Below, piece by piece: positions 497 to 33,314 of a stretch of 64,000 nucleotides of DNA. Origin of the DNA: an uncultured Gammaproteobacteria bacterium. Its GTDB lineage: Bacteria; Patescibacteriota; Microgenomatia; UBA8517. The stretch spans positions 733,865 to 797,864 of the forward strand of contig OZ246419.1 in assembly GCA_965231135.1 (NCBI GenBank), given 5' to 3'. The position numbers and the translations under genes are program-made. The number at the start of each line of letters is the position of its first letter. The stretch's first letter is position 1. The notes under the pieces were generated by a model, which was not told the origin of the DNA, ran no database searches, and was given only the letters and a program-made list of their open reading frames with translations.

Positions 497-694
497 ATGG
501 TTGTTGTTAAAAAACAAAAAGGTGAAAGCGACGACAGGCTTATTGCCCGTTTTCGTAAAAAAATTATTGACTCGGGAATTCTTATTGATTACCGAGAGCG
601 TGAGCGTTATAAGAAAAAATCTCAAAGACGTAAAGAGCAAAAATATCGTGTTAACTACATGAAAGAGCTCGAAAAGAAGAGAAACGCTGCCTAA
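497..694 (+). CDS. rpsU: 30S ribosomal protein S21
   Basis: 65 aa, highly basic; ...RFRKKIIDSGILIDYRERERYKKKSQRRKEQK... matches the S21 pattern; strong SD upstream. Confidence 0.85.
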   Translation: MVVVKKQKGESDDRLIARFRKKIIDSGILIDYRERERYKKKSQRRKEQKYRVNYMKELEKKRNAA

Positions 695-1661
695 TTAGTT
701 CCATCAGGATAATCTCGAAGATAACCAGTTTGTAAGGCATGTTGGTTTATTTCTGCTGCTTTATCAAGTATATCTTGCCAGCCATTGGGGTGAATTAAGC
801 GAAAACGCGGATCATTCTGGAGATCATACATCTGTGTGGATGACCATTCTTTATTAGATCCATACTGCCATCTTATTTCAGAAATTACTTTGCCGCCAAT
901 GCTCGCCATCTCCCGTACATATTCTTGCAGTAACGGATTGGAAGCATCTGTTCCTAGGACAGAAATACACAATTCTTTATATAAACTTCTAAAGAAGTCA
1001 GTGTTTAAATTGTCGTGAATTGGTAGTACAAAAACTTTATCCACTATTGGCGAAGAAGCTATTTCCCACATTCTTCCAGCTAATCCTGGTATTCTTGGTC
1101 TATCTAACCCTTTTCTTTTTTTACAATTGTATTGGGATCAAAACCAAAAATGATTTTATGGGTTTCGGGATAAAGTCTTGCGCAAGCGCTTAGGTGGCCA
1201 GCATGAGGAGGATCTATGGCGCCATGGACTAAACCAATTACTTCCCCTTTGGCATGCCAACTATTGGTTAAAGTGAGAATTTCTTCCCAGGTTGCATATT
1301 TTGTTTCAGGATGAGTTTCTAATGGTTCACCTGTTTTCATCCAATTATCAATATCTTGGGTACTGAATAATCCAGATTCGATTCCAAGATATTGGAGAGC
1401 CATACATTTTGCATAACTTCTAGTTGTCATAAAGGGATCTATTCCCAACATTTCTTCAATTGCATATTGTTGTAATGAGACAGAGAGTTCTTTTACGAAA
1501 CATTCTCGTAAGGCAGATAGAGAAGGTTCAAAAAGAAAATTTGCTGCTATTTTTTTATTTAGCGGATCGTCAAGCAAATCCATGACTATTCCTGACAGGT
1601 CATCAAAGCCCAAATCAGATCTGTAAGTATGACGAAGTACCCCGGCTTCTTTAAAAGGCAT
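691..1661 (-). pseudogene. Cytidylyltransferase-like (HxGH) nucleotidyltransferase with an unknown N-terminal domain, split into two ORFs (1104..1661 and 691..1071) by a frameshift at a T7/A7 homopolymer (1116-1122)
   Basis: ORF1 carries GLVHGAIDPPHAGH (a GxFDxxHxGH-type motif) then KIIFGFDPNT. ORF2 continues with SPIVDKVFVLP...ISVLGTDAS...GGKVISEIRWQ, matching the YVDEVIP / DVFVMGDD / ISTTxIR regions of GCT/TagD-type enzymes. Adding one A to the A7 run joins the frames with no intervening stop (...TIVKKRKGLDRPRIPGLAGRMWEIASSP...). Confidence 0.55.
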
Positions 1662-1669
1662 TTTAGAGA

Positions 1670-2287
1670 TTATACTATTTTTCTAGTAAATAGTTTGCGA
1701 TGATAATTAGTTAAGCCATATTTTGCAATCGCATCTCTATGTTCTTTAGTTCCGTAGCCTTTATTTTTATGCCAACAATAACTACTATATTTTTTATTTT
1801 GAGATAGTTTTGTCATCAGTTCATCACGATAAACTTTGGCAATAATTGAAGCTGCGGCAATTGAATACGATTTACTATCGCCTTTTATTATCGGAAGTTG
1901 TTTAGTGCGCCTTAATCCACGAATGTTTGGGATATAAAATGCATCTATTAATAGGTAGTCAACTTTTGTATGAGAATTTTTTAAAGCACGGCGAAAAGCC
2001 ATGTTAGTTGCTTTTACAATACCGTGTCTATTAATTTCAGCAACACTTGCCTTTCCTATACCATAATTTATGGCATTTCGTTTTATCCAATTATTGGCTA
2101 ATTCTCTATTTTTTGCAGACATTTTTTTACTATCATTAATTAAAATATTCATTTTTGTATTTTTATTGAAACTTACAAAAGCAGTTACAACCGGACCAGC
2201 TAGACTACCGCGACCAACTTCATCAAGGCCTGCAATAACATTAATTCCCTTTTTCCAAAGCTTATTTTCGTATGAGAAATCTGGCAT
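1670..2287 (-). CDS. rnhB: Ribonuclease HII
   Basis: GLDEVGRGSLAGPVV active-site motif; start taken at MPDFSYE (2287) inside the ORF 1670..2305. Confidence 0.85.
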   Translation of the reverse strand: MPDFSYENKLWKKGINVIAGLDEVGRGSLAGPVVTAFVSFNKNTKMNILINDSKKMSAKNRELANNWIKRNAINYGIGKASVAEINRHGIVKATNMAFRRALKNSHTKVDYLLIDAFYIPNIRGLRRTKQLPIIKGDSKSYSIAAASIIAKVYRDELMTKLSQNKKYSSYCWHKNKGYGTKEHRDAIAKYGLTNYHRKLFTRKIV

Positions 2288-5297: not shown

Positions 5298-6170
5298 ATG
5301 ACTCCAGAACCAAACTCACGAAGATTGGTTAATGATGAAGGCGAATTATTAAAAATAAATAATTTTCTAGCGCAAAATACTTCTGCAGAACAAAATCGAC
5401 TTAGTTTACAACATGAAAGTGAAGTAAAAAAAGATTTACTGCGACAAAAAATGTGGCATATTATTTATGGATTTCAAGAAATAGATAGAGGTTTAGATGA
5501 AAAAATAATGTATTTATTCAATGATTCTCTCTCAGCCGCAGCAATAGTTATTAATTTTCCATTTATAAATGTTGAAAACGGAAATATAAATATTAGATAT
5601 TTAGCCGCAACAACTCAGGGCTTTGGATATTTATCTTTCAGCTTTGATAAAGTAATTAAAAGTGCTCAAGATACAATATTTTCCATAGAAATTCCTTTAA
5701 ATTCTGCTTATTCTGACATAGATAAAATTTATGCTTTGGCTCCAACACCTAGCGAGAATAATAAATCTCTTGACATAGATAATCTTAGAATACTTAACGA
5801 TTATTTTGACAAAATAAATGGCAATTTAGGCGAAGGAAAACCTGGAACTCTTGATCAATTGACCGAAGATGAGATGGGGCTGGTTTTTAAAAATAGTTGG
5901 GAATTAAGAAATAGTAGATTGCCTATAAATTTTAGTCTTGCTCAAAAGTTTGATGTGGCAATTGATTTACAAACTGTCTTAGATAAATTGACCAAAGTAA
6001 AACAAGCACAAATAAATGAAGCTAATATATCTGTGGATGAAGCTACAAATAGACTTAATTTAGCCAATGACTCTCTTGAAATATTGGGTAGAAAAGAAGA
6101 ACTAGAGCCAAGAATATCTGAAGTTGAAACAGATAAACCTAAAAAGAAAAAGAGATTTGTTCTTTTTTAA
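5298..6170 (+). CDS. Hypothetical protein (290 aa) inserted between rplA and rplJ
   Basis: ATG at 5298 overlaps the rplA stop (TAAgATG); no SD; ends with a KKKK tail; no motif recognised. Confidence 0.55.
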   Translation: MTPEPNSRRLVNDEGELLKINNFLAQNTSAEQNRLSLQHESEVKKDLLRQKMWHIIYGFQEIDRGLDEKIMYLFNDSLSAAAIVINFPFINVENGNINIRYLAATTQGFGYLSFSFDKVIKSAQDTIFSIEIPLNSAYSDIDKIYALAPTPSENNKSLDIDNLRILNDYFDKINGNLGEGKPGTLDQLTEDEMGLVFKNSWELRNSRLPINFSLAQKFDVAIDLQTVLDKLTKVKQAQINEANISVDEATNRLNLANDSLEILGRKEELEPRISEVETDKPKKKKRFVLF

Positions 6171-8132: not shown

Positions 8133-9020
8133 CTATTTTATCAAAGAATTGAGATATTTTTCTAATTCTGGTAATTCAGGAGAGATACTGGGGTCAAGAG
8201 TTAATCCTGGTCCTCTATTTATTTCAAAAACATAAACTTTTCCTTTTTTATCAATACAAATATCGACTCCAGAAATGTTTAAATCGACAGATTTTGTTCC
8301 TTGTATAGAATAATTTATTAATTCTTTAGAAATATTATTTTTATCTATCCAACCAGCAGAAGATTCTTCATCGTTTACTGAAATTTTGTTTTCAATAATT
8401 TTTCTAGTAGATTCTTCATGAATTCCAACAACTTCATTTCCCATTACAACAATTCGATATTCCTTATCTATTTCAACTTTTTCCTGGAATAAAAATCCGT
8501 TACTTTCATCTTTTTTAAGAAGTTTTTCGAAGTCTGCAATTTCGTTAATTATAAAAAGTCCATTTCTTTTTTGGCTCCATAAATTTTTAGCATAAATTGG
8601 AAAAGCAAAAGATTTCATAATTTCATCTTTTGAATTAATTATTTCTTCTCTGGAAAAATAAAAAGTATTAGGAACTGGAATATTCCCATATGCAATTAGA
8701 AGAAGATTGTTTAGTTTATCTTTGGAGGCGCCTACTTTTTCAAATGTTTTATCGATAAAAGGAATATTATTTTTTAAACAAAAAGTGGCAATTGATCCTG
8801 CCAGTGGAATATAATTTCGGGTTTGACGAAAATAGACAAGATCAAATTCCAACAAGTTTAAATCTCCAACAAAACATTCGATTTTTGAATCTATTATCGA
8901 TATTGATATTTCTGATAATTTTTTTAAAATAAATTTGTTATTTGAATTTTTATTTAAGTAATCGGTAATTTGATTATGTCTTGAAGTTATTTTATTAACC
9001 AAAATCAATATTTTTTTCAT
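8133..9020 (-). CDS. ATP-grasp ligase, divergent RimK-like paralog
   Basis: FPIYAKN (ATP-binding Lys), FQEKVE, YRIVVMGNEVVG, ISGVDICIDKKGKVYVFEINRGPGL (E-x-N Mg site). It lacks the DFRxN..GG motif of its neighbours. Confidence 0.65.
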   Translation of the reverse strand: MKKILILVNKITSRHNQITDYLNKNSNNKFILKKLSEISISIIDSKIECFVGDLNLLEFDLVYFRQTRNYIPLAGSIATFCLKNNIPFIDKTFEKVGASKDKLNNLLLIAYGNIPVPNTFYFSREEIINSKDEIMKSFAFPIYAKNLWSQKRNGLFIINEIADFEKLLKKDESNGFLFQEKVEIDKEYRIVVMGNEVVGIHEESTRKIIENKISVNDEESSAGWIDKNNISKELINYSIQGTKSVDLNISGVDICIDKKGKVYVFEINRGPGLTLDPSISPELPELEKYLNSLIK

Positions 9021-23462: not shown

Positions 23463-24733
23463 ACAAGTATTTTTTTGAACTTATCTTGACCATTATATGG
23501 CCCAATTATGCTTAAATTCAAGTTCTGTTTTAAGAAAATTTGCTTTGCAACATCATAAACCTGATCTATGGTTACTTTATCTAGACTTTCAAAGATTTCT
23601 TCTGGAGTCTGAGGAGATTCGATTAATAATTCTTTTTCGCCAAAGAATTGATTAACTGCACTTGTATCTTCAAGACTTAAAGCAATATGGCCTTTGAGGT
23701 ATTCTTTCGCTTTTTGAAACTCTGAAACTTCAATTAACTTAACTTTATCTTTTATTGCATAGTGCTCTTCTAAAATGATTTTAATGGCTTCCTCTGCATT
23801 TTTTGGATCCACACCGACATAAGTTGAGAAATAACCAGTATCAATTAAATGATCTGCGCTTGTATGAACAGAATAAGCTAGTCCTCTTTTTTCTCTTACT
23901 TCAATAAATAATCTGGAAGACATTCCTTTACCTAAAATAGTTGCCAAAATATTTTCAGCAAAACGGGTTTGATCTCCTAATTTGAAACCTCGGAAGCCCA
24001 AAATTAAATGAGCCTGCTCGATTTTTTTATATTTTAATTTAACCCAGGGCTCATTTTGTTTCGCAACAAATTTTGGAAAATTTTCTTTTGGTTCGTTTTC
24101 TGGAAGATTAATAAAATATTTATTTACTAAATCTATCGCTTCTTTTTCTGTTACTCCGCCTGCAACTGTAATAAGTAGGTTTTCAGGAAAGTAATATTTC
24201 TTTCTAAACTCAATAAAATCATTTCTTGTAATATTTTTAATCGCTTTTTCAGTACCTACTATGTTTCTCCCAAGAGGGTTTCCTTGAAAAATAAGTTCTT
24301 CAAATACATCACCAATATCTGAAGTGGGAGTGTCTTCGTACATTGCTTTCTCTTCTAAAATTACTCCTTTTTCTTTTTCAAGTTCATCTTTGTCTATCAA
24401 AGGATTTAAAATCATATCAGATAAAACGTCAAATGCTTTTTCCAGATGATTTTTAGAAGATTTAATGTAGAAATTAGTCCATTCTTTTGTAGTTCCTGCG
24501 TTAAATTCCCCGCCAAAAGAATCTACAAACGAAGATAAATCTTTTGTAGTCGGATACTTTTTGCTACCTTTAAATACAATGTGTTCTGTAAAATGAGAAA
24601 TTCCTGCAACTTGCTCTTCTTCATACCTGCTACCGACATTTGCCCAGACAGTAACAGTAACTGATTCTGCTCCAGACATAGGAATAGTTAGAACACGAAG
24701 GCCTGATGGTAAAGTTGTTTTATTAAAATTCAT
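23459..24733 (-). CDS. M16 (pitrilysin/insulinase) family zinc peptidase
   Basis: HxxEH motif GISHFTEHIVFKGS; 4-nt overlap with ndk. Confidence 0.8.
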   Translation of the reverse strand: MNFNKTTLPSGLRVLTIPMSGAESVTVTVWANVGSRYEEEQVAGISHFTEHIVFKGSKKYPTTKDLSSFVDSFGGEFNAGTTKEWTNFYIKSSKNHLEKAFDVLSDMILNPLIDKDELEKEKGVILEEKAMYEDTPTSDIGDVFEELIFQGNPLGRNIVGTEKAIKNITRNDFIEFRKKYYFPENLLITVAGGVTEKEAIDLVNKYFINLPENEPKENFPKFVAKQNEPWVKLKYKKIEQAHLILGFRGFKLGDQTRFAENILATILGKGMSSRLFIEVREKRGLAYSVHTSADHLIDTGYFSTYVGVDPKNAEEAIKIILEEHYAIKDKVKLIEVSEFQKAKEYLKGHIALSLEDTSAVNQFFGEKELLIESPQTPEEIFESLDKVTIDQVYDVAKQIFLKQNLNLSIIGPYNGQDKFKKILV

Positions 24734-26458: not shown

Positions 26459-27334
26459 CTATAAGCCTAATATTGAAATAAAGTAACTTAAAAGAGGTAT
26501 CACAGGTAATAAAATTAATTTCCCTAAAACAGGCGAAATGAAGCTTATTAACCCTCCAGCCAGGCCTAAAATTAAAATTGGAGAAATTGTCCAAACCAGG
26601 AGTAGAGATAGAATTGCTCCCAAGAAATTAAAATTGCCAAAAAGAAAAAAGATTATTGGAAAAATTCCCAGATTTGTACTAAGGGCTATTGATAGATCCT
26701 CCTTTAAGATTTCTGGAATAAATTTTAATGAATTTTTTATTTTTGAGTTGAACAAAACGATTGAGAATGTGGCTGTAAAAGATAAAATGAAGCCCAAGTC
26801 TAGTATTAAAAAGGGCCAAATAATTAGCATTAACAGAAACACAATTAAACTAATTTTAAGAGTATTTGTCACACGCCCAAAAATTAAACCGATGAATGCA
26901 ATTGTAGTAATTAAACCTGATTTAATCGATGATGTCTGAGAGCCAGTAATAAATATATAAATCCATATAATAAGAATTATTAATATTGCAGATTTTTGCC
27001 TTTTAATTTTATTTATAAAAATAGTCATTAAGAATCCTGCAAGAATTGTTATTTTTATTCCAGATGTTTCTGTTAAGAAAGTTATTCCTAAATTTTTAAT
27101 TTTGTTTCCCAAAAAATAAGTTAAATTATTTTTTGTACCCAAAACAATACTTGACAAAATTTCTCCTTTATCCCCTGGTATTGATGTATCAAAAAAATTT
27201 TCTAAAGATTTACTAATAAAATTTTCGTTAATGTCTTGAACAGGCTTTTGCAAATTAGTTGTCAGGAGACGAAAAAGAAGAAGACAGATCAACAAAAACC
27301 ACAAGGAATATTTCATTTTAAAATTAATAAACAA
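26459..27334 (-). CDS. comEC: ComEC/Rec2-family competence membrane protein (short, channel domain only)
   Basis: Polytopic; competence-domain-like LGTKNNLTYFLGNKIKNLGITFLTETSGIKITILAGFL; downstream of comEA. Confidence 0.65.
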   Translation of the reverse strand: MFINFKMKYSLWFLLICLLLFRLLTTNLQKPVQDINENFISKSLENFFDTSIPGDKGEILSSIVLGTKNNLTYFLGNKIKNLGITFLTETSGIKITILAGFLMTIFINKIKRQKSAILIILIIWIYIFITGSQTSSIKSGLITTIAFIGLIFGRVTNTLKISLIVFLLMLIIWPFLILDLGFILSFTATFSIVLFNSKIKNSLKFIPEILKEDLSIALSTNLGIFPIIFFLFGNFNFLGAILSLLLVWTISPILILGLAGGLISFISPVLGKLILLPVIPLLSYFISILGL

Positions 27335-27992
27335 TCAGTCGGTCTTTTATTTTGTTATATTCGCTTTGTTTTAAAACACTTTTGGAAAGCAACTCTTCAA
27401 CAGCCGAGTACGGTCTGTTATCAATTATTTTTTGACCGTATACTTGGCCTATTCCTTCTAAACTTTCCAGTTCTCCAAGACTTGCAGTGTTAATATTTAT
27501 TTGCCCACTTTCTGATTGTGCGACACTTGAATTTTGTTCATTTGAGCTAGCAATGTCATTGTTTGATTGCTGAAGAGAAGGTATATAGATCTTTTGGCCG
27601 TCTGTTAATTTTGCCGCCTTATTAATATTTTTATCAACCCAGTTTTTATCAGCATTGTCAGTAATTCCTCCGGCTTTTTGTAATGCATCTTCTACTCTAC
27701 TGCCAAAATCCAACTCATAAACTCCAGGGTTTACAACCTCACCTGAGACATCAATTTCTATTTTTAATGAAGCGCTACTTTCTGGACTATTTTCAACTGT
27801 AGAATTTCCTAGCACTTCTTGACTCTGATTGCTTGTAGAATGATTATTGCCTCTCAATATTAAACCTAGAATAACAAGGATTATGCCTAAGCTTAAGAAA
27901 ATGATCTGAAGTTTATATGGAGACGACAAAATTAATAATTTTGCCTGCGACAAAAATGACTTTGTAGTCTTTTCCACTGATCCATTTTTCAA
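27324..27992 (-). CDS. comEA: Competence protein ComEA (TM anchor + SLBB + helix-hairpin-helix)
   Basis: C-terminal HhH ININTASLGELESLEGIGQVYGQKIIDNRPY; TTG start at 27992 overlaps the leuS 3' end by about 80 nt, and alternative GTG/TTG starts exist at 27977 and 27953. Confidence 0.75.
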   Translation of the reverse strand: MKNGSVEKTTKSFLSQAKLLILSSPYKLQIIFLSLGIILVILGLILRGNNHSTSNQSQEVLGNSTVENSPESSASLKIEIDVSGEVVNPGVYELDFGSRVEDALQKAGGITDNADKNWVDKNINKAAKLTDGQKIYIPSLQQSNNDIASSNEQNSSVAQSESGQININTASLGELESLEGIGQVYGQKIIDNRPYSAVEELLSKSVLKQSEYNKIKDRLIVY

Positions 27993-30522
27993 CTTTTTCG
28001 TCTTTTAATGCAAGAGCTGTTATTTTTTTCTTATCTTTTCCTTCGCTTGTTTCAACTTGAACCTGGGATCTGAATTTACCATTTACTTGAACAATTATTG
28101 TTAACTGATCTACTTTAATATATTTTGAATTATATTTAGGCCAATTTGAATTATGAACCGAATATTTTTCTTGCAATACTTCATTCCATAATTCTTCTGT
28201 AACGTGCGGTGCAAAAGGAGCAAGAAGCTGACATAAGGCAATTAACGATTCTTTGCTAGTTCCGTTGTCATATAAATAGTTAACAAATTCCATGATTGTT
28301 GCAATCGCTGTATTGTAATGAAATATTTCTATATCTTTTGTAACCTTTTGAATGGTTTGGTGTAATTTTGACTGTAATTTCTTTTCATCTTTTGGTTTTT
28401 TGTTTTCGAAATATAAATTCCAAACTCTTCTAATAAACTTTTGCATTCCCTCTATGCCTGTATCTCTAAAGTCTGGTGAGCCGTCCATTGGACCAATAAA
28501 TACCACATACATTCTTAATGTGTCTGCACCAAATTTTTTGATGTATTCATCAGGATTGACAACGTTCCCTCGAGATTTACTCATCTTTGCACCATCTTTA
28601 ATCATCAACCCGTGCGCAAAGAAGTTTGGAAAAGGTTCTTCAAAATTTAAATAATCAAGATCATGAAGAACCATTGTCACAAATCTTGCATACATAAGAT
28701 GTAGCACTGCATGCTCCGCTCCGCCAAAGTATTGGTTAACAGGAAGCCATTTCTTAGTAATTTCCTTATCAAAAGGAACTTTATCAAAGTTTGTTGAAGG
28801 ATATCGTAAAAAATACCATGAACTATCTAAAAATGTATCAGCTACGTCTGTTTCTCTTTTAGCATTGCTTCCACAATGCGGGCATTTTACTTCATAAAAC
28901 TCTGGATGGTTTGCCAAAGGTCCACGGCCGTTTCCTTCAGGTTTGTAATCTTCTATTACTGGAAGTTTAACTGGTAAGTTTTCTTCAGGCCACCACCCTT
29001 GCCAGTCCCAATCTGATTGATTTTGATGTAAAAGATTATTGTTTGTTTTTAAATAACCATCGCCTTTTTTGGCACATTCTTCACAGAAAATCATTGGTAA
29101 CGGGCATCCCCAATATCGCTGTCGGCCAATTCCCCAATCACGAAGATGATAAGTAAAAACTCTTTTACCCCAACCTTTTTCTTCAAAATAATTTTTAGTT
29201 TTTTCCATTGCTTTGGTAAATTCAATACCGTTTAAAAAGTCTGAATTGATCATTTTTCCTGCTTCTTCTCCTGCATGAAGTTGTTCTACTTCTTTAATTT
29301 CCCCTGCTTCTCCATTTTTACCTTCAACTACCCGAGTGATTGGTAGTCCAAATTTTTTGGCGAACTCAAAATCTCTTTTATCGTGACCTGGACAGCCTTG
29401 AACAGCTCCAGTCCCGAAGTCCATCAGAACAAAATCTGTTACCCAAACAGGAATTTGTTTTTTAGTTAAATGATTTTCAACATACAAACCAGTAAAAACG
29501 CCAGTTTTATCCTTGCCTTCAGCTTCTCTTTGTTGTTTTGTTTTACTTAGAGATCTTTTGATATACTTTTTTACATCTTCTTTGTTGCTTTCGGGAATAA
29601 TCTCTAATAAATTATCCCGTGCATATTCCGGGGCTACGACTAAGAATGTAGCTCCAAAATTAATAGGAGTTGTTGTAAAAACTGTTATTTTTTCATTATG
29701 ATTTATTATTTTGAAATCTATTTCAATACCTTCTTTTTTCCCGATCCATTCCCGTTGAGCTACGATAACACGTTCTGACCAGTTTATTTTAGGTAGGTTT
29801 TCTAATAATCTTTCTGCATAATCGGTAATCCTAAAAAACCAAACTTCTAATTCTTTTTTCTCAACAACTGTGCCGCAGCGTTCGCAAACCATTAATCCCT
29901 CTGTGTTTGCAACTGGATTACCTTTTGCATCAATTGGATCTTTACCTGCTTGCTTTGGCGTCATAACCTGCTCGTCGGATAAAACTGTTTTATCTTTTGG
30001 ACAAAAATTTACTAATGCTTTTTTTCTATACGCCAAACCTGCTTTAAATAATTCTTTAAAAACCCACTCGGTCCAGTGATAATAATTAACATCTGAGGTT
30101 GTTACAGTATGCGTCCAATCATAACCATGGCCAAAACTTTTAAATTGTTCCTCAAAGTGCTTAATTGATCTATTTAGCATTACTTGCGGAGACTCACCTA
30201 TTTTAAGCGCATAATTTTCTGAATGAATTCCAAATGAATCGTAACCCATTGGCTGCAATACATTTTTTCCATTCATTCTTTGGAATCTTCCATAAATGTC
30301 GCTTCCAGTTGAGCTCATTGCATGACCTGCGTGAAGCCCTTCTGCTGAAGGGTAAGGAAACATAAACAAATTGTAAAAAGGATTTTGCGCTTTTTGAATG
30401 TCCGGAGAATAAATTTTACTTTCTTCCCATCTATTTTGCCATTTTGCTTCGATATTTTTATGATCGTATTTAATCTTACTTGTCATTTGATTTATTGTAT
30501 TTGAATTAGCTTTAAGTGTCAA
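27913..30522 (-). CDS. leuS: Leucine--tRNA ligase
   Basis: 869 aa; PYPSAEGLHAGHAMSSTGSDIYGRFQRM (HIGH region), KMSKSRGN, editing (CP1) domain present. Confidence 0.92.
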   Translation of the reverse strand: MTLKANSNTINQMTSKIKYDHKNIEAKWQNRWEESKIYSPDIQKAQNPFYNLFMFPYPSAEGLHAGHAMSSTGSDIYGRFQRMNGKNVLQPMGYDSFGIHSENYALKIGESPQVMLNRSIKHFEEQFKSFGHGYDWTHTVTTSDVNYYHWTEWVFKELFKAGLAYRKKALVNFCPKDKTVLSDEQVMTPKQAGKDPIDAKGNPVANTEGLMVCERCGTVVEKKELEVWFFRITDYAERLLENLPKINWSERVIVAQREWIGKKEGIEIDFKIINHNEKITVFTTTPINFGATFLVVAPEYARDNLLEIIPESNKEDVKKYIKRSLSKTKQQREAEGKDKTGVFTGLYVENHLTKKQIPVWVTDFVLMDFGTGAVQGCPGHDKRDFEFAKKFGLPITRVVEGKNGEAGEIKEVEQLHAGEEAGKMINSDFLNGIEFTKAMEKTKNYFEEKGWGKRVFTYHLRDWGIGRQRYWGCPLPMIFCEECAKKGDGYLKTNNNLLHQNQSDWDWQGWWPEENLPVKLPVIEDYKPEGNGRGPLANHPEFYEVKCPHCGSNAKRETDVADTFLDSSWYFLRYPSTNFDKVPFDKEITKKWLPVNQYFGGAEHAVLHLMYARFVTMVLHDLDYLNFEEPFPNFFAHGLMIKDGAKMSKSRGNVVNPDEYIKKFGADTLRMYVVFIGPMDGSPDFRDTGIEGMQKFIRRVWNLYFENKKPKDEKKLQSKLHQTIQKVTKDIEIFHYNTAIATIMEFVNYLYDNGTSKESLIALCQLLAPFAPHVTEELWNEVLQEKYSVHNSNWPKYNSKYIKVDQLTIIVQVNGKFRSQVQVETSEGKDKKKITALALKDEKVEKWISGKDYKVIFVAGKIINFVVSI

Positions 30523-32438: not shown

Positions 32439-33314
32439 TTAAATAAATCTCCTTTGAGAAACCACTGTCGATAAATATTCTAATTGTTTTTTATTTGTTC
32501 TTGCATGAGCAAGTTTCAAATTTTGTGTTTTTGCTATCTCAAGATTTTTTCTAACCTTTTCTCCTGCCTGATCCATAGCAAGCATACGTGAGGCAAATTT
32601 GGCCAGCTGAGATTCTGTAATTGTCTGTTCAAAAATTGAAGAGAACATTTCTTTTTCGAAAAACATTAAAATTTCTTCCAGACTTGGTTCGAATAAATAT
32701 TTTATTTTCCTTCCCTTCTCGTCTTTATTTACTGGAGTTTCTGCAGATATAACTACTTCTTCTGGATCTTGATTGATTATGCTTTTAAACTTTCCATAAA
32801 AAATATGGATCTCTTCGTATTCGACCAAGTGACGAACAAGATCTCCCATCTTTTCTCTATCAAATCCGAAATCAGGAAGATCAAAATATGAATAAGATTT
32901 ATCCGGGAAAGATTGACGAAACATTTCTAAACCAAGAGTACCCACAATTGTAGCTTCGTAATCTCTTTCTCTAACTTCCTGAATAAATTTATTAAAAACT
33001 TTTCGAGTTAAATCGCCATAAAAGCCTGTATTTGCAGAAATAAATACTGCTACAGTTTTACCGTTATGACTTATTAACTTTAGTTTTTGACCGTTTTTGA
33101 TACCTTTTTTCTTTAATAATTTTTGAAATTCATCAGTGTATGATGCTTGTAATTCTTTAAATATTTGCTGCATATCTTCCAAGAATTCTCTAGAAGAAAG
33201 AACTGAACCTCTTGTAGCTTTCATGCGGCTTGAGGAGATTTGTGCATAAGCATCTGCTAATACACCTAATATTTCAAGATCAGTAACTTGTTTAGTAGTA
33301 TTTTTCTTGTCCAT
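32439..33314 (-). CDS. atpG: F-type ATP synthase gamma subunit
   Basis: Position between atpA and atpD; coiled-coil termini; ...QITESQLAKFASRMLAMDQAGEKV... matches gamma. Confidence 0.8.
   Translation of the reverse strand: MDKKNTTKQVTDLEILGVLADAYAQISSSRMKATRGSVLSSREFLEDMQQIFKELQASYTDEFQKLLKKKGIKNGQKLKLISHNGKTVAVFISANTGFYGDLTRKVFNKFIQEVRERDYEATIVGTLGLEMFRQSFPDKSYSYFDLPDFGFDREKMGDLVRHLVEYEEIHIFYGKFKSIINQDPEEVVISAETPVNKDEKGRKIKYLFEPSLEEILMFFEKEMFSSIFEQTITESQLAKFASRMLAMDQAGEKVRKNLEIAKTQNLKLAHARTNKKQLEYLSTVVSQRRFI

Follow-up and report, generated by a model that had tools for sequence, protein, structure and literature searches.

A frameshift at an A7 run divides a predicted HldC-like nucleotidyltransferase gene of a Patescibacteria genome, probably through a recent one-base deletion

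Introduction

Two neighbouring short ORFs in a Patescibacteria genome, both annotated as hypothetical proteins, raise the question whether they are two genes or the two halves of a single gene and, in the latter case, how the reading frame came to be broken. They lie in a 64-kb window, which is the whole stretch of DNA analysed here. An initial annotation had proposed that a single extra A in a run of seven As (A7) would join them into one cytidylyltransferase-like protein, and had offered three options for the origin of the break: a sequencing or assembly error, a recent pseudogenisation, or a slippage-prone, possibly phase-variable tract.

Results

Layout of the locus and position of the frame break

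Both ORFs and the A7 run are read on the minus strand, which is the coding strand at this locus. The features are as follows (coordinates refer to the window):

1104..1661, minus strand: upstream ORF, 185 aa plus a TAG stop at 1106..1104 (NCBI: hypothetical protein HWA51604.1 / VG895_00935); it supplies the helical domain at the N-terminus (about residues 20-110) as well as the first third of the predicted nucleotidyltransferase fold, including HxGH (H153-A-G-H156).
1116..1122, minus strand: A7 homopolymer, the frame-break site (T7 on the plus strand).
691..1116, minus strand: downstream part of the coding sequence, read in the -1 frame: 141 codons and then a stop at 693..691; it contains the RKGxDRPR motif, three further Rossmann-like sheet strands, SST (S274-S-T276) and the C-terminal helix with GYLRDYP.
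1072..1103, minus strand: apparent intergenic gap of 32 nt, which encodes DRPRIPGLAGR in the -1 frame.
691..1071, minus strand: downstream annotated ORF, 126 aa, starting at the internal Met codon 1071..1069 (HWA51605.1 / VG895_00940).
Junction-spanning peptides of the repaired product: IVKKRKGLDR; IIFGFDPNTIVK and then GLDRPR after K/R cleavage.

The upstream ORF ends ACA ATT GTA AAA AAA GAA AAG GGT TAG. In the 0 frame the run is positioned as GT[A AAA AAA] GAA AAG GGT TAG, and the stop is reached 4 codons past the run, which gives the C-terminus KEKG-stop. The -1 frame is open from about 5 codons before the run. Insertion of one A into A7 generates a 323-aa ORF without a stop, reading ...GFDPNTIVKKRKGLDRPRIPGLAGRMWEIASSPIVDKVFVLP...; the initial annotation had expected a joined protein of ~324 aa, and the positions it gave for T7 (1116-1122) and for the ORFs (1104..1661 and 691..1071) are all exact.

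In the segment 497-2305 of the window, the adjoining genes are rnhB, at a distance of 8 nt, and the convergent rpsU (S21), with 3' ends overlapping by 4 nt. With 38% GC versus 36% for the genome, the composition of the gene matches that of the genome. A second copy of the nucleotidyltransferase gene was looked for in the 64-kb window and none was found. A promoter scan gave fewer matches than shuffled sequences, and a terminator was not found.

Some observations concern gene starts in the window more generally. TATAAT is located 5-13 nt upstream of the ATG in many ORFs (e.g., starts 1661, 12866, 16270, 18024, 22286, 26440 and 62035); the copy at 1674..1669 is missed by a sigma-70 two-hexamer scan. 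Only 7 of 35 long ORFs have a Shine-Dalgarno-like motif upstream. This pattern suggests that the genome commonly uses leaderless mRNAs or mRNAs with very short leaders.

The two ORFs are halves of one gene

A HMMER search with the fused protein among 1.84 billion protein cluster representatives resulted in 90 matches, of which 51 reach E<=1e-10. Leaving aside the two fragments from the window itself, the best matches are single proteins of ~300-330 aa that cover both halves, for example P0003 (317 aa, E 1.4e-45, query residues 41-322) and P0004 (313 aa, E 1.6e-45). A word-indexed search with the fused protein as query found nothing but the window's own 185-aa ORF, hence no close relatives, and the best homologue in the databases searched is ~40% identical.

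We aligned the fused protein with 44 single-ORF homologues (45-sequence set) and within a closest set of 11 sequences. It is colinear with the single-ORF homologues, and in both alignments the junction is crossed without a gap. The break sits within the strongest motif of the family, GFDxNxxxxxRKGxDRPRFPQLAWRMWExASLPTVDxVFV, and the 0-frame GFDPNTIV as well as the -1-frame RKGLDRPR fit this motif. The family spacing (GFD, 7 residues, RKG) is matched by the A8 reading, whereas deletion of two As (A5) leaves it one residue short; the reading frame must accordingly change at the two Lys codons of the run. The apparent gap specifies a portion of the family's best-conserved motif and is therefore coding DNA rather than a spacer: R188, P189, R190, P192, L194 and R197, all located within 1103..1072, are invariant in the 11-sequence alignment. 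The ATG of the downstream ORF corresponds to the conserved internal Met of the family motif WRMWE.

Through the 11-sequence alignment, two genome and five metagenome loci, none of them close, were also read as DNA. All seven are in frame and have no A run at the junction (e.g., ATT AGA AAA AGA AAG GGT). This comparison of frame-break conservation covers seven loci, with no database relative closer than ~40% identity. The two ORFs are halves of one gene and no chance juxtaposition.

The repaired gene is predicted to encode an HldC-like nucleotidyltransferase

An AlphaFold (AF2) model of the fused protein, calculated on the 45-sequence alignment (pLDDT 88.7, pTM 0.89), shows two domains: a helical one at the N-terminus and then a single Rossmann-like one, whose parallel sheet has five strands. 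Strands 142-147 and 169-174 derive from the upstream ORF, strands 209-212, 235-239 and 258-262 from the downstream ORF. The HxGH motif is found in the upstream ORF (G147-AIDPP-H153-A-G-H156), with G147, D150 and H156 at least 90% conserved among the 45 sequences. KGxxRP and the second, ISSTxxR-like signature (W-S274-S275-T276-Q) are found in the downstream ORF; T276 is at least 90% conserved among the 45 sequences and S275 is invariant in the 11 closest. In the HIGH superfamily both signatures contact the NTP. Since these signatures fall on separate fragments, neither fragment should be active alone.

The structure nearest to the model is HldC. The family profile matches the ethanolamine-phosphate cytidylyltransferase ECT (3elb) at 4.4e-10, with an alignment that crosses the junction, and it also matches HldC (1e-5), NMNAT, PPAT and GCT. 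For PF01467 the fused protein reaches 12.4 bits versus a cut-off of 21, and 21 of the 45 family members match this model at E<0.01 (best 3.4e-8). The score for the NCBIfam model rfaE_dom_II (TIGR02199) is 21.5 bits (E 1.7e-4), while the equivalog cut-off is 181.5 bits; as this cut-off is missed widely, an HldC orthologue is ruled out, and the protein is HldC-like in fold. We predict that the fused product is a HIGH-type (cytidylyltransferase-like, HldC-like) nucleotidyltransferase.

Homologues, structure model and fold and profile matches are thus all in agreement with the view of the initial annotation that the ORFs are halves of one gene, and the matches to HldC, ECT, GCT, PPAT and NMNAT support its proposal that one extra A restores a complete cytidylyltransferase-like enzyme. 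It had also considered that orthologs might be split as well, or that the downstream ORF might belong to an unrelated family; homologues are unsplit at this place, and the downstream ORF is of the same family as the upstream one.

The family of the window protein is not covered by any Pfam or NCBIfam model. The family comprises ~90 cluster representatives in the 1.84 billion proteins, with members of 300-330 aa that carry a C-terminal GYLRDYPNGT. The gene neighbourhoods of its members are unrelated and none is conserved (loci L003-L009). As far as seen, the family appears to be confined to Patescibacteria (CPR) type genomes, e.g., Woesebacteria. One of its loci (L003, CAYFQP010000021.1) is a 3.7-kb contig with 37% GC that is binned as 'uncultured Gammaproteobacteria' and bears this Patescibacteria-type gene; in the 120-nt junction segment it is identical to the metagenome contig L005, and it is probably mis-binned. 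With its helical N-terminal domain joined to an HldC-like catalytic core, the uncharacterised CPR family may deserve a definition of its own.

The A7 run is reproducible across assemblies

The window is matched at 100% identity, A7 included, by Logan assemblies of two single runs: SRR12170514 over 1877 nt and SRR12170516 over 1189 nt. At consensus level, A7 is therefore common to the deposited Patescibacteria MAG (810-kb contig) and to two single-run assemblies. ORFs in the window reach 2582 aa, intact ORFs include 36 further coding-strand A runs of at least 7, and no gene of the window is broken by any of its 46 other A/T runs of 7-8. Considering these long ORFs and the A runs in intact ORFs, the assembly is not prone to frameshifts. 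With the same A7 in two independent single-run assemblies and clean coding sequence in the rest of the window, assembly is unlikely to have introduced the break by random error.

Homopolymers that join two long open frames were also sought by a mechanical scan, which flagged 8 sites in the window. The sites 33301-33305, 23470-23476 and 9011-9017 (minus strand) are junctions of adjacent ORFs; other flagged sites are two on the plus strand within the 2582-aa ORF, and A5 at 1678-1682 near the rnhB end. A second frameshift was considered for the 80-nt overlap of ORFs 27324..27992 and 27913..30522 and was rejected, since LeuRS ends normally and the next ORF is over-extended at its 5' end.

The 2582-aa ORF is one of three consecutive giant ORFs at 38324-58741 on the plus strand (2056, 2582 and 2157 aa). 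The 2056-aa ORF has an N-terminal MerR-type HTH; the other two show six Laminin_G_3 (concanavalin-like) matches each, together with DUF2341 and sialidase-N-like matches. Surface or adhesion proteins are the probable products.

If the break were an artefact, the true genome would have A8 and an intact gene, and the consensus would have dropped one A. As expected from such an error, the break coincides exactly with a homopolymer, and decay is entirely absent from the downstream half (see below). Sporadic breaks are also seen elsewhere in metagenome assemblies of this family: P0094/P0095 (ENA contig of 7084 nt, 90% cluster of P0004), a homologue of another lineage, is split after ...ATWDDIV in one assembly, whereas four sister assemblies (at least 90% identity) are intact. 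This split can be either a real variant or an assembly error. Since it is located at another position and its sisters are intact, breaks in the family are sporadic and not positionally conserved. Against an artefact stand, however, the agreement of the MAG with the assemblies of two separate runs, which are 100% identical over the shared 1.2-1.9 kb, and the 46 further A/T runs that leave their genes unbroken. Moreover, a run of 7 is short for systematic short-read error. The MAG and the two assemblies may share sample origin and platform, and a systematic homopolymer miscall or a minority A8 may still lie behind the common A7. On balance, we consider it unlikely that the gene is intact in the true genome.

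The downstream half shows no decay and the gene is accessory

With a leave-one-out family HMM, the downstream half scores 140 bits and the catalytic-domain part upstream of the break 88 bits. The resulting C/N score ratio of 1.59 is within the range of intact family members. No stop is present in the 141 downstream codons, though 71 single substitutions could make one, and this absence bounds neutral divergence at < ~0.13 substitutions per site (95%). Such absence of decay in the downstream half points to a young mutation or to some continuing, weak use of the gene. Since no database relative is closer than ~40% identity, we can only infer the ancestral A8 and the age of the mutation.

The nearest genomes were found through the adjacent RNase HII gene, which is 65-68% identical (loci L010-L014). 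In these relatives the order is L1-L11-NusG-(SecE)-x-rnhB, followed by convergent rpsU, which directly abuts or overlaps. No gene is present between rnhB and rpsU, and no homologue was detected within 3 kb. Because the nearest relatives lack the gene at this slot, it is accessory and its loss is tolerated in related lineages. The difference in gene content between rnhB and rpsU could result from a lineage-specific gain or from repeated precise loss.

The run has the form of a slippery heptamer and lacks stimulators of recoding

In the 0-frame phase, A7 reads A_AAA_AAA, which is formally an X_XXY_YYZ -1 slippery heptamer; the run starts at codon position 3. If A7 is the true sequence, a useful full-length enzyme could be produced by -1 frameshifting on A_AAA_AAA_G and/or by RNA polymerase adding an A, and the split state would be maintained or tolerated by selection, possibly with two products. 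Several observations are in line with such recoding. The heptamer is perfect and in phase, a shift into the -1 frame yields exactly a sequence like that of the homologues, and translation in the 0 frame ends just 4 codons further on. No family-invariant residue has been lost from the fully intact downstream half, as expected if the full-length protein is still made and selected, and A7 is reproducible across assemblies. RNA polymerase is known to make predominantly single-base insertions in A/T runs, and the rate grows exponentially as runs lengthen (PMC5574713); in endosymbionts, a partial correction of poly-A-tract frameshifts among the transcripts has been reported (Tamas 2008, cited in PMC3622351).

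Other data speak against this mechanism. RNA folding around A7 (141-nt and 66-nt segments) gave z ~ -1.0, with 34-35 of 200 shuffles folding as well, and thus revealed no stimulatory structure in the form of a downstream stem-loop or pseudoknot. Neither GGAG nor AGGA occurs as a Shine-Dalgarno-like stimulator in the 25 nt upstream of A7. In E. coli, A_AAA_AAA is far less shift-prone than A_AAA_AAG, and efficient transcriptional slippage was described for runs of ~9 or more (PMC5009743), a threshold that is not reached by the run of 7 at the break. A transcriptome-wide study in Buchnera found zero cases of reading-frame restoration (PMC5574713). An A run or a frame break at the junction is present in 0 of the 7 homologous loci. 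Finally, the identical in-phase heptamer also occurs in intact genes of the window, with the same in-phase GTAAAAAAAG in the intact gene 5298..6170, and in-phase A8 runs are present in three intact genes. Given such in-phase A7 and A8 runs in intact genes, there would be nothing unusual for this genome in an A8 ancestor.

The codon phase of such runs is uneven: in the 45 long ORFs, coding-strand A7 runs start 18 times at position 1, 11 times at position 2 and 5 times at position 3 (the A_AAA_AAA phase), and all three A8 runs start at position 3. The uneven phase of A7 could reflect codon usage or mild avoidance of the slippery phase.

Overall, low-level unprogrammed rescue is plausible and high-level recoding is unsupported; functional recoding under selection appears improbable to us. 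We are similarly doubtful that A7 is the working form of the gene, with the accessory HldC-like enzyme made exclusively by stimulator-independent slippage (ribosomal -1 or RNA polymerase +A). If this were true, it would imply a very low enzyme dose or a reversible on/off control of a surface-glycan step, and it would be the first example of recoding or of a contingency locus in CPR.

Phase variation and a two-chain enzyme as improbable alternatives

Reversible replication slippage between A7 and A8 could toggle a glycan-related nucleotidyltransferase within the population. In other bacteria, enzymes of the HldC-like, sugar-nucleotide type are typically among the targets of phase variation, and the gene is accessory. 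Furthermore, a role of homopolymeric tracts as general on/off switches of prokaryotes has been put forward (PMC2831843). The MAG and both single-run assemblies, however, all have the OFF length A7 at consensus level, and homologues have no tract at the junction. The tract itself is nothing special, because A7 runs are commonplace in a genome of 36% GC (42 in the 64 kb). In addition, seven A/T are short for a contingency locus. Phase variation thus has little probability in our view.

That the two ORFs are separately translated and form an active two-chain enzyme is very improbable: the downstream ORF does have an ATG (1071) with an AGGA/GGAAG string upstream, but this ATG is the conserved internal Met of WRMWE and no evolved start, Shine-Dalgarno use is rare in the genome (7 of 35 starts), no homologue is split at the junction, and separate translation would cut helix 177-184 inside the fold and lose the invariant segment LDRPRIPGLAGR (residues 186-197), so that we reject this possibility on the ground that the gap encodes invariant residues.

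Discussion

We favour a genuine, recent one-base deletion (A8 to A7) that inactivated or nearly inactivated an accessory HldC-like nucleotidyltransferase gene, and assign a probability of about 0.58 to this explanation. The ancestral sequence would have been GTA AAA AAA AGA AAA GGG (A8), and loss of a single A would have produced A7. As a consequence of this deletion, 0-frame translation would stop 4 codons after the run. The NTP-binding HxGH would be stranded on a 185-aa fragment, with RKGxxRP, SST and three of the five sheet strands left in the other frame. Neither fragment would be expected to be active alone, and function would be lost. The gene would accordingly represent an early-stage pseudogene or a strongly down-expressed gene. 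A small full-length fraction may still arise by unprogrammed slippage, either by RNA polymerase adding one A or by a ribosomal -1 shift on A_AAA_AAA.

Of the three options put forward in the initial annotation, recent pseudogenisation is the one we favour. Sequencing or assembly error has been weakened by the same A7 in two assemblies, and programmed or phase-variable slippage has received no positive support.

Homopolymers are indel hotspots that start gene degradation in AT-rich reduced genomes (PMC3622351). A frameshift of this kind is a classic, ordinary first step of gene erosion in AT-rich small genomes and leaves the current understanding unchallenged. For annotation, the entries HWA51604.1 and HWA51605.1, now listed as hypothetical proteins, ought to be combined into a single HIGH-type nucleotidyltransferase gene that is marked as frameshifted.

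The closest known enzymes are HldC / RfaE domain II and the PF01467 superfamily (GCT/TagD, CCT/ECT, PPAT, NMNAT, FMNAT). Identity to HldC / RfaE domain II is only 19-23%, and compared to HldC the window protein has an extra N-terminal helical domain of ~115 aa and a C-terminal helix ending in GYLRDYPNGT, which is absent from HldC.

With programmed -1 frameshifting of the dnaX or IS-element type, the locus shares a formal in-phase slippery heptamer and a nearby 0-frame stop. It differs from this type in having A_AAA_AAA instead of A_AAA_AAG, in the absence of stimulators, in a site that is unconserved in homologues, and in the occurrence of the heptamer in intact genes as well.

The poly-A frameshifts of endosymbionts (PMC5574713; Tamas 2008, cited in PMC3622351) provide a further comparison. 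The run of 7 is shorter than the ~9 or more described for efficient slippage (PMC5009743), the present case was analysed at the DNA level, and the host belongs to a free-living or episymbiotic Patescibacteria lineage, unlike the insect endosymbionts. In common with the endosymbiont cases are the AT-rich small genome, the single-base indel in a coding-strand A run and the intact downstream frame. The case thus illustrates that poly-A tracts can act as break points for the loss of accessory genes in AT-rich Patescibacteria, as they do in insect endosymbionts.
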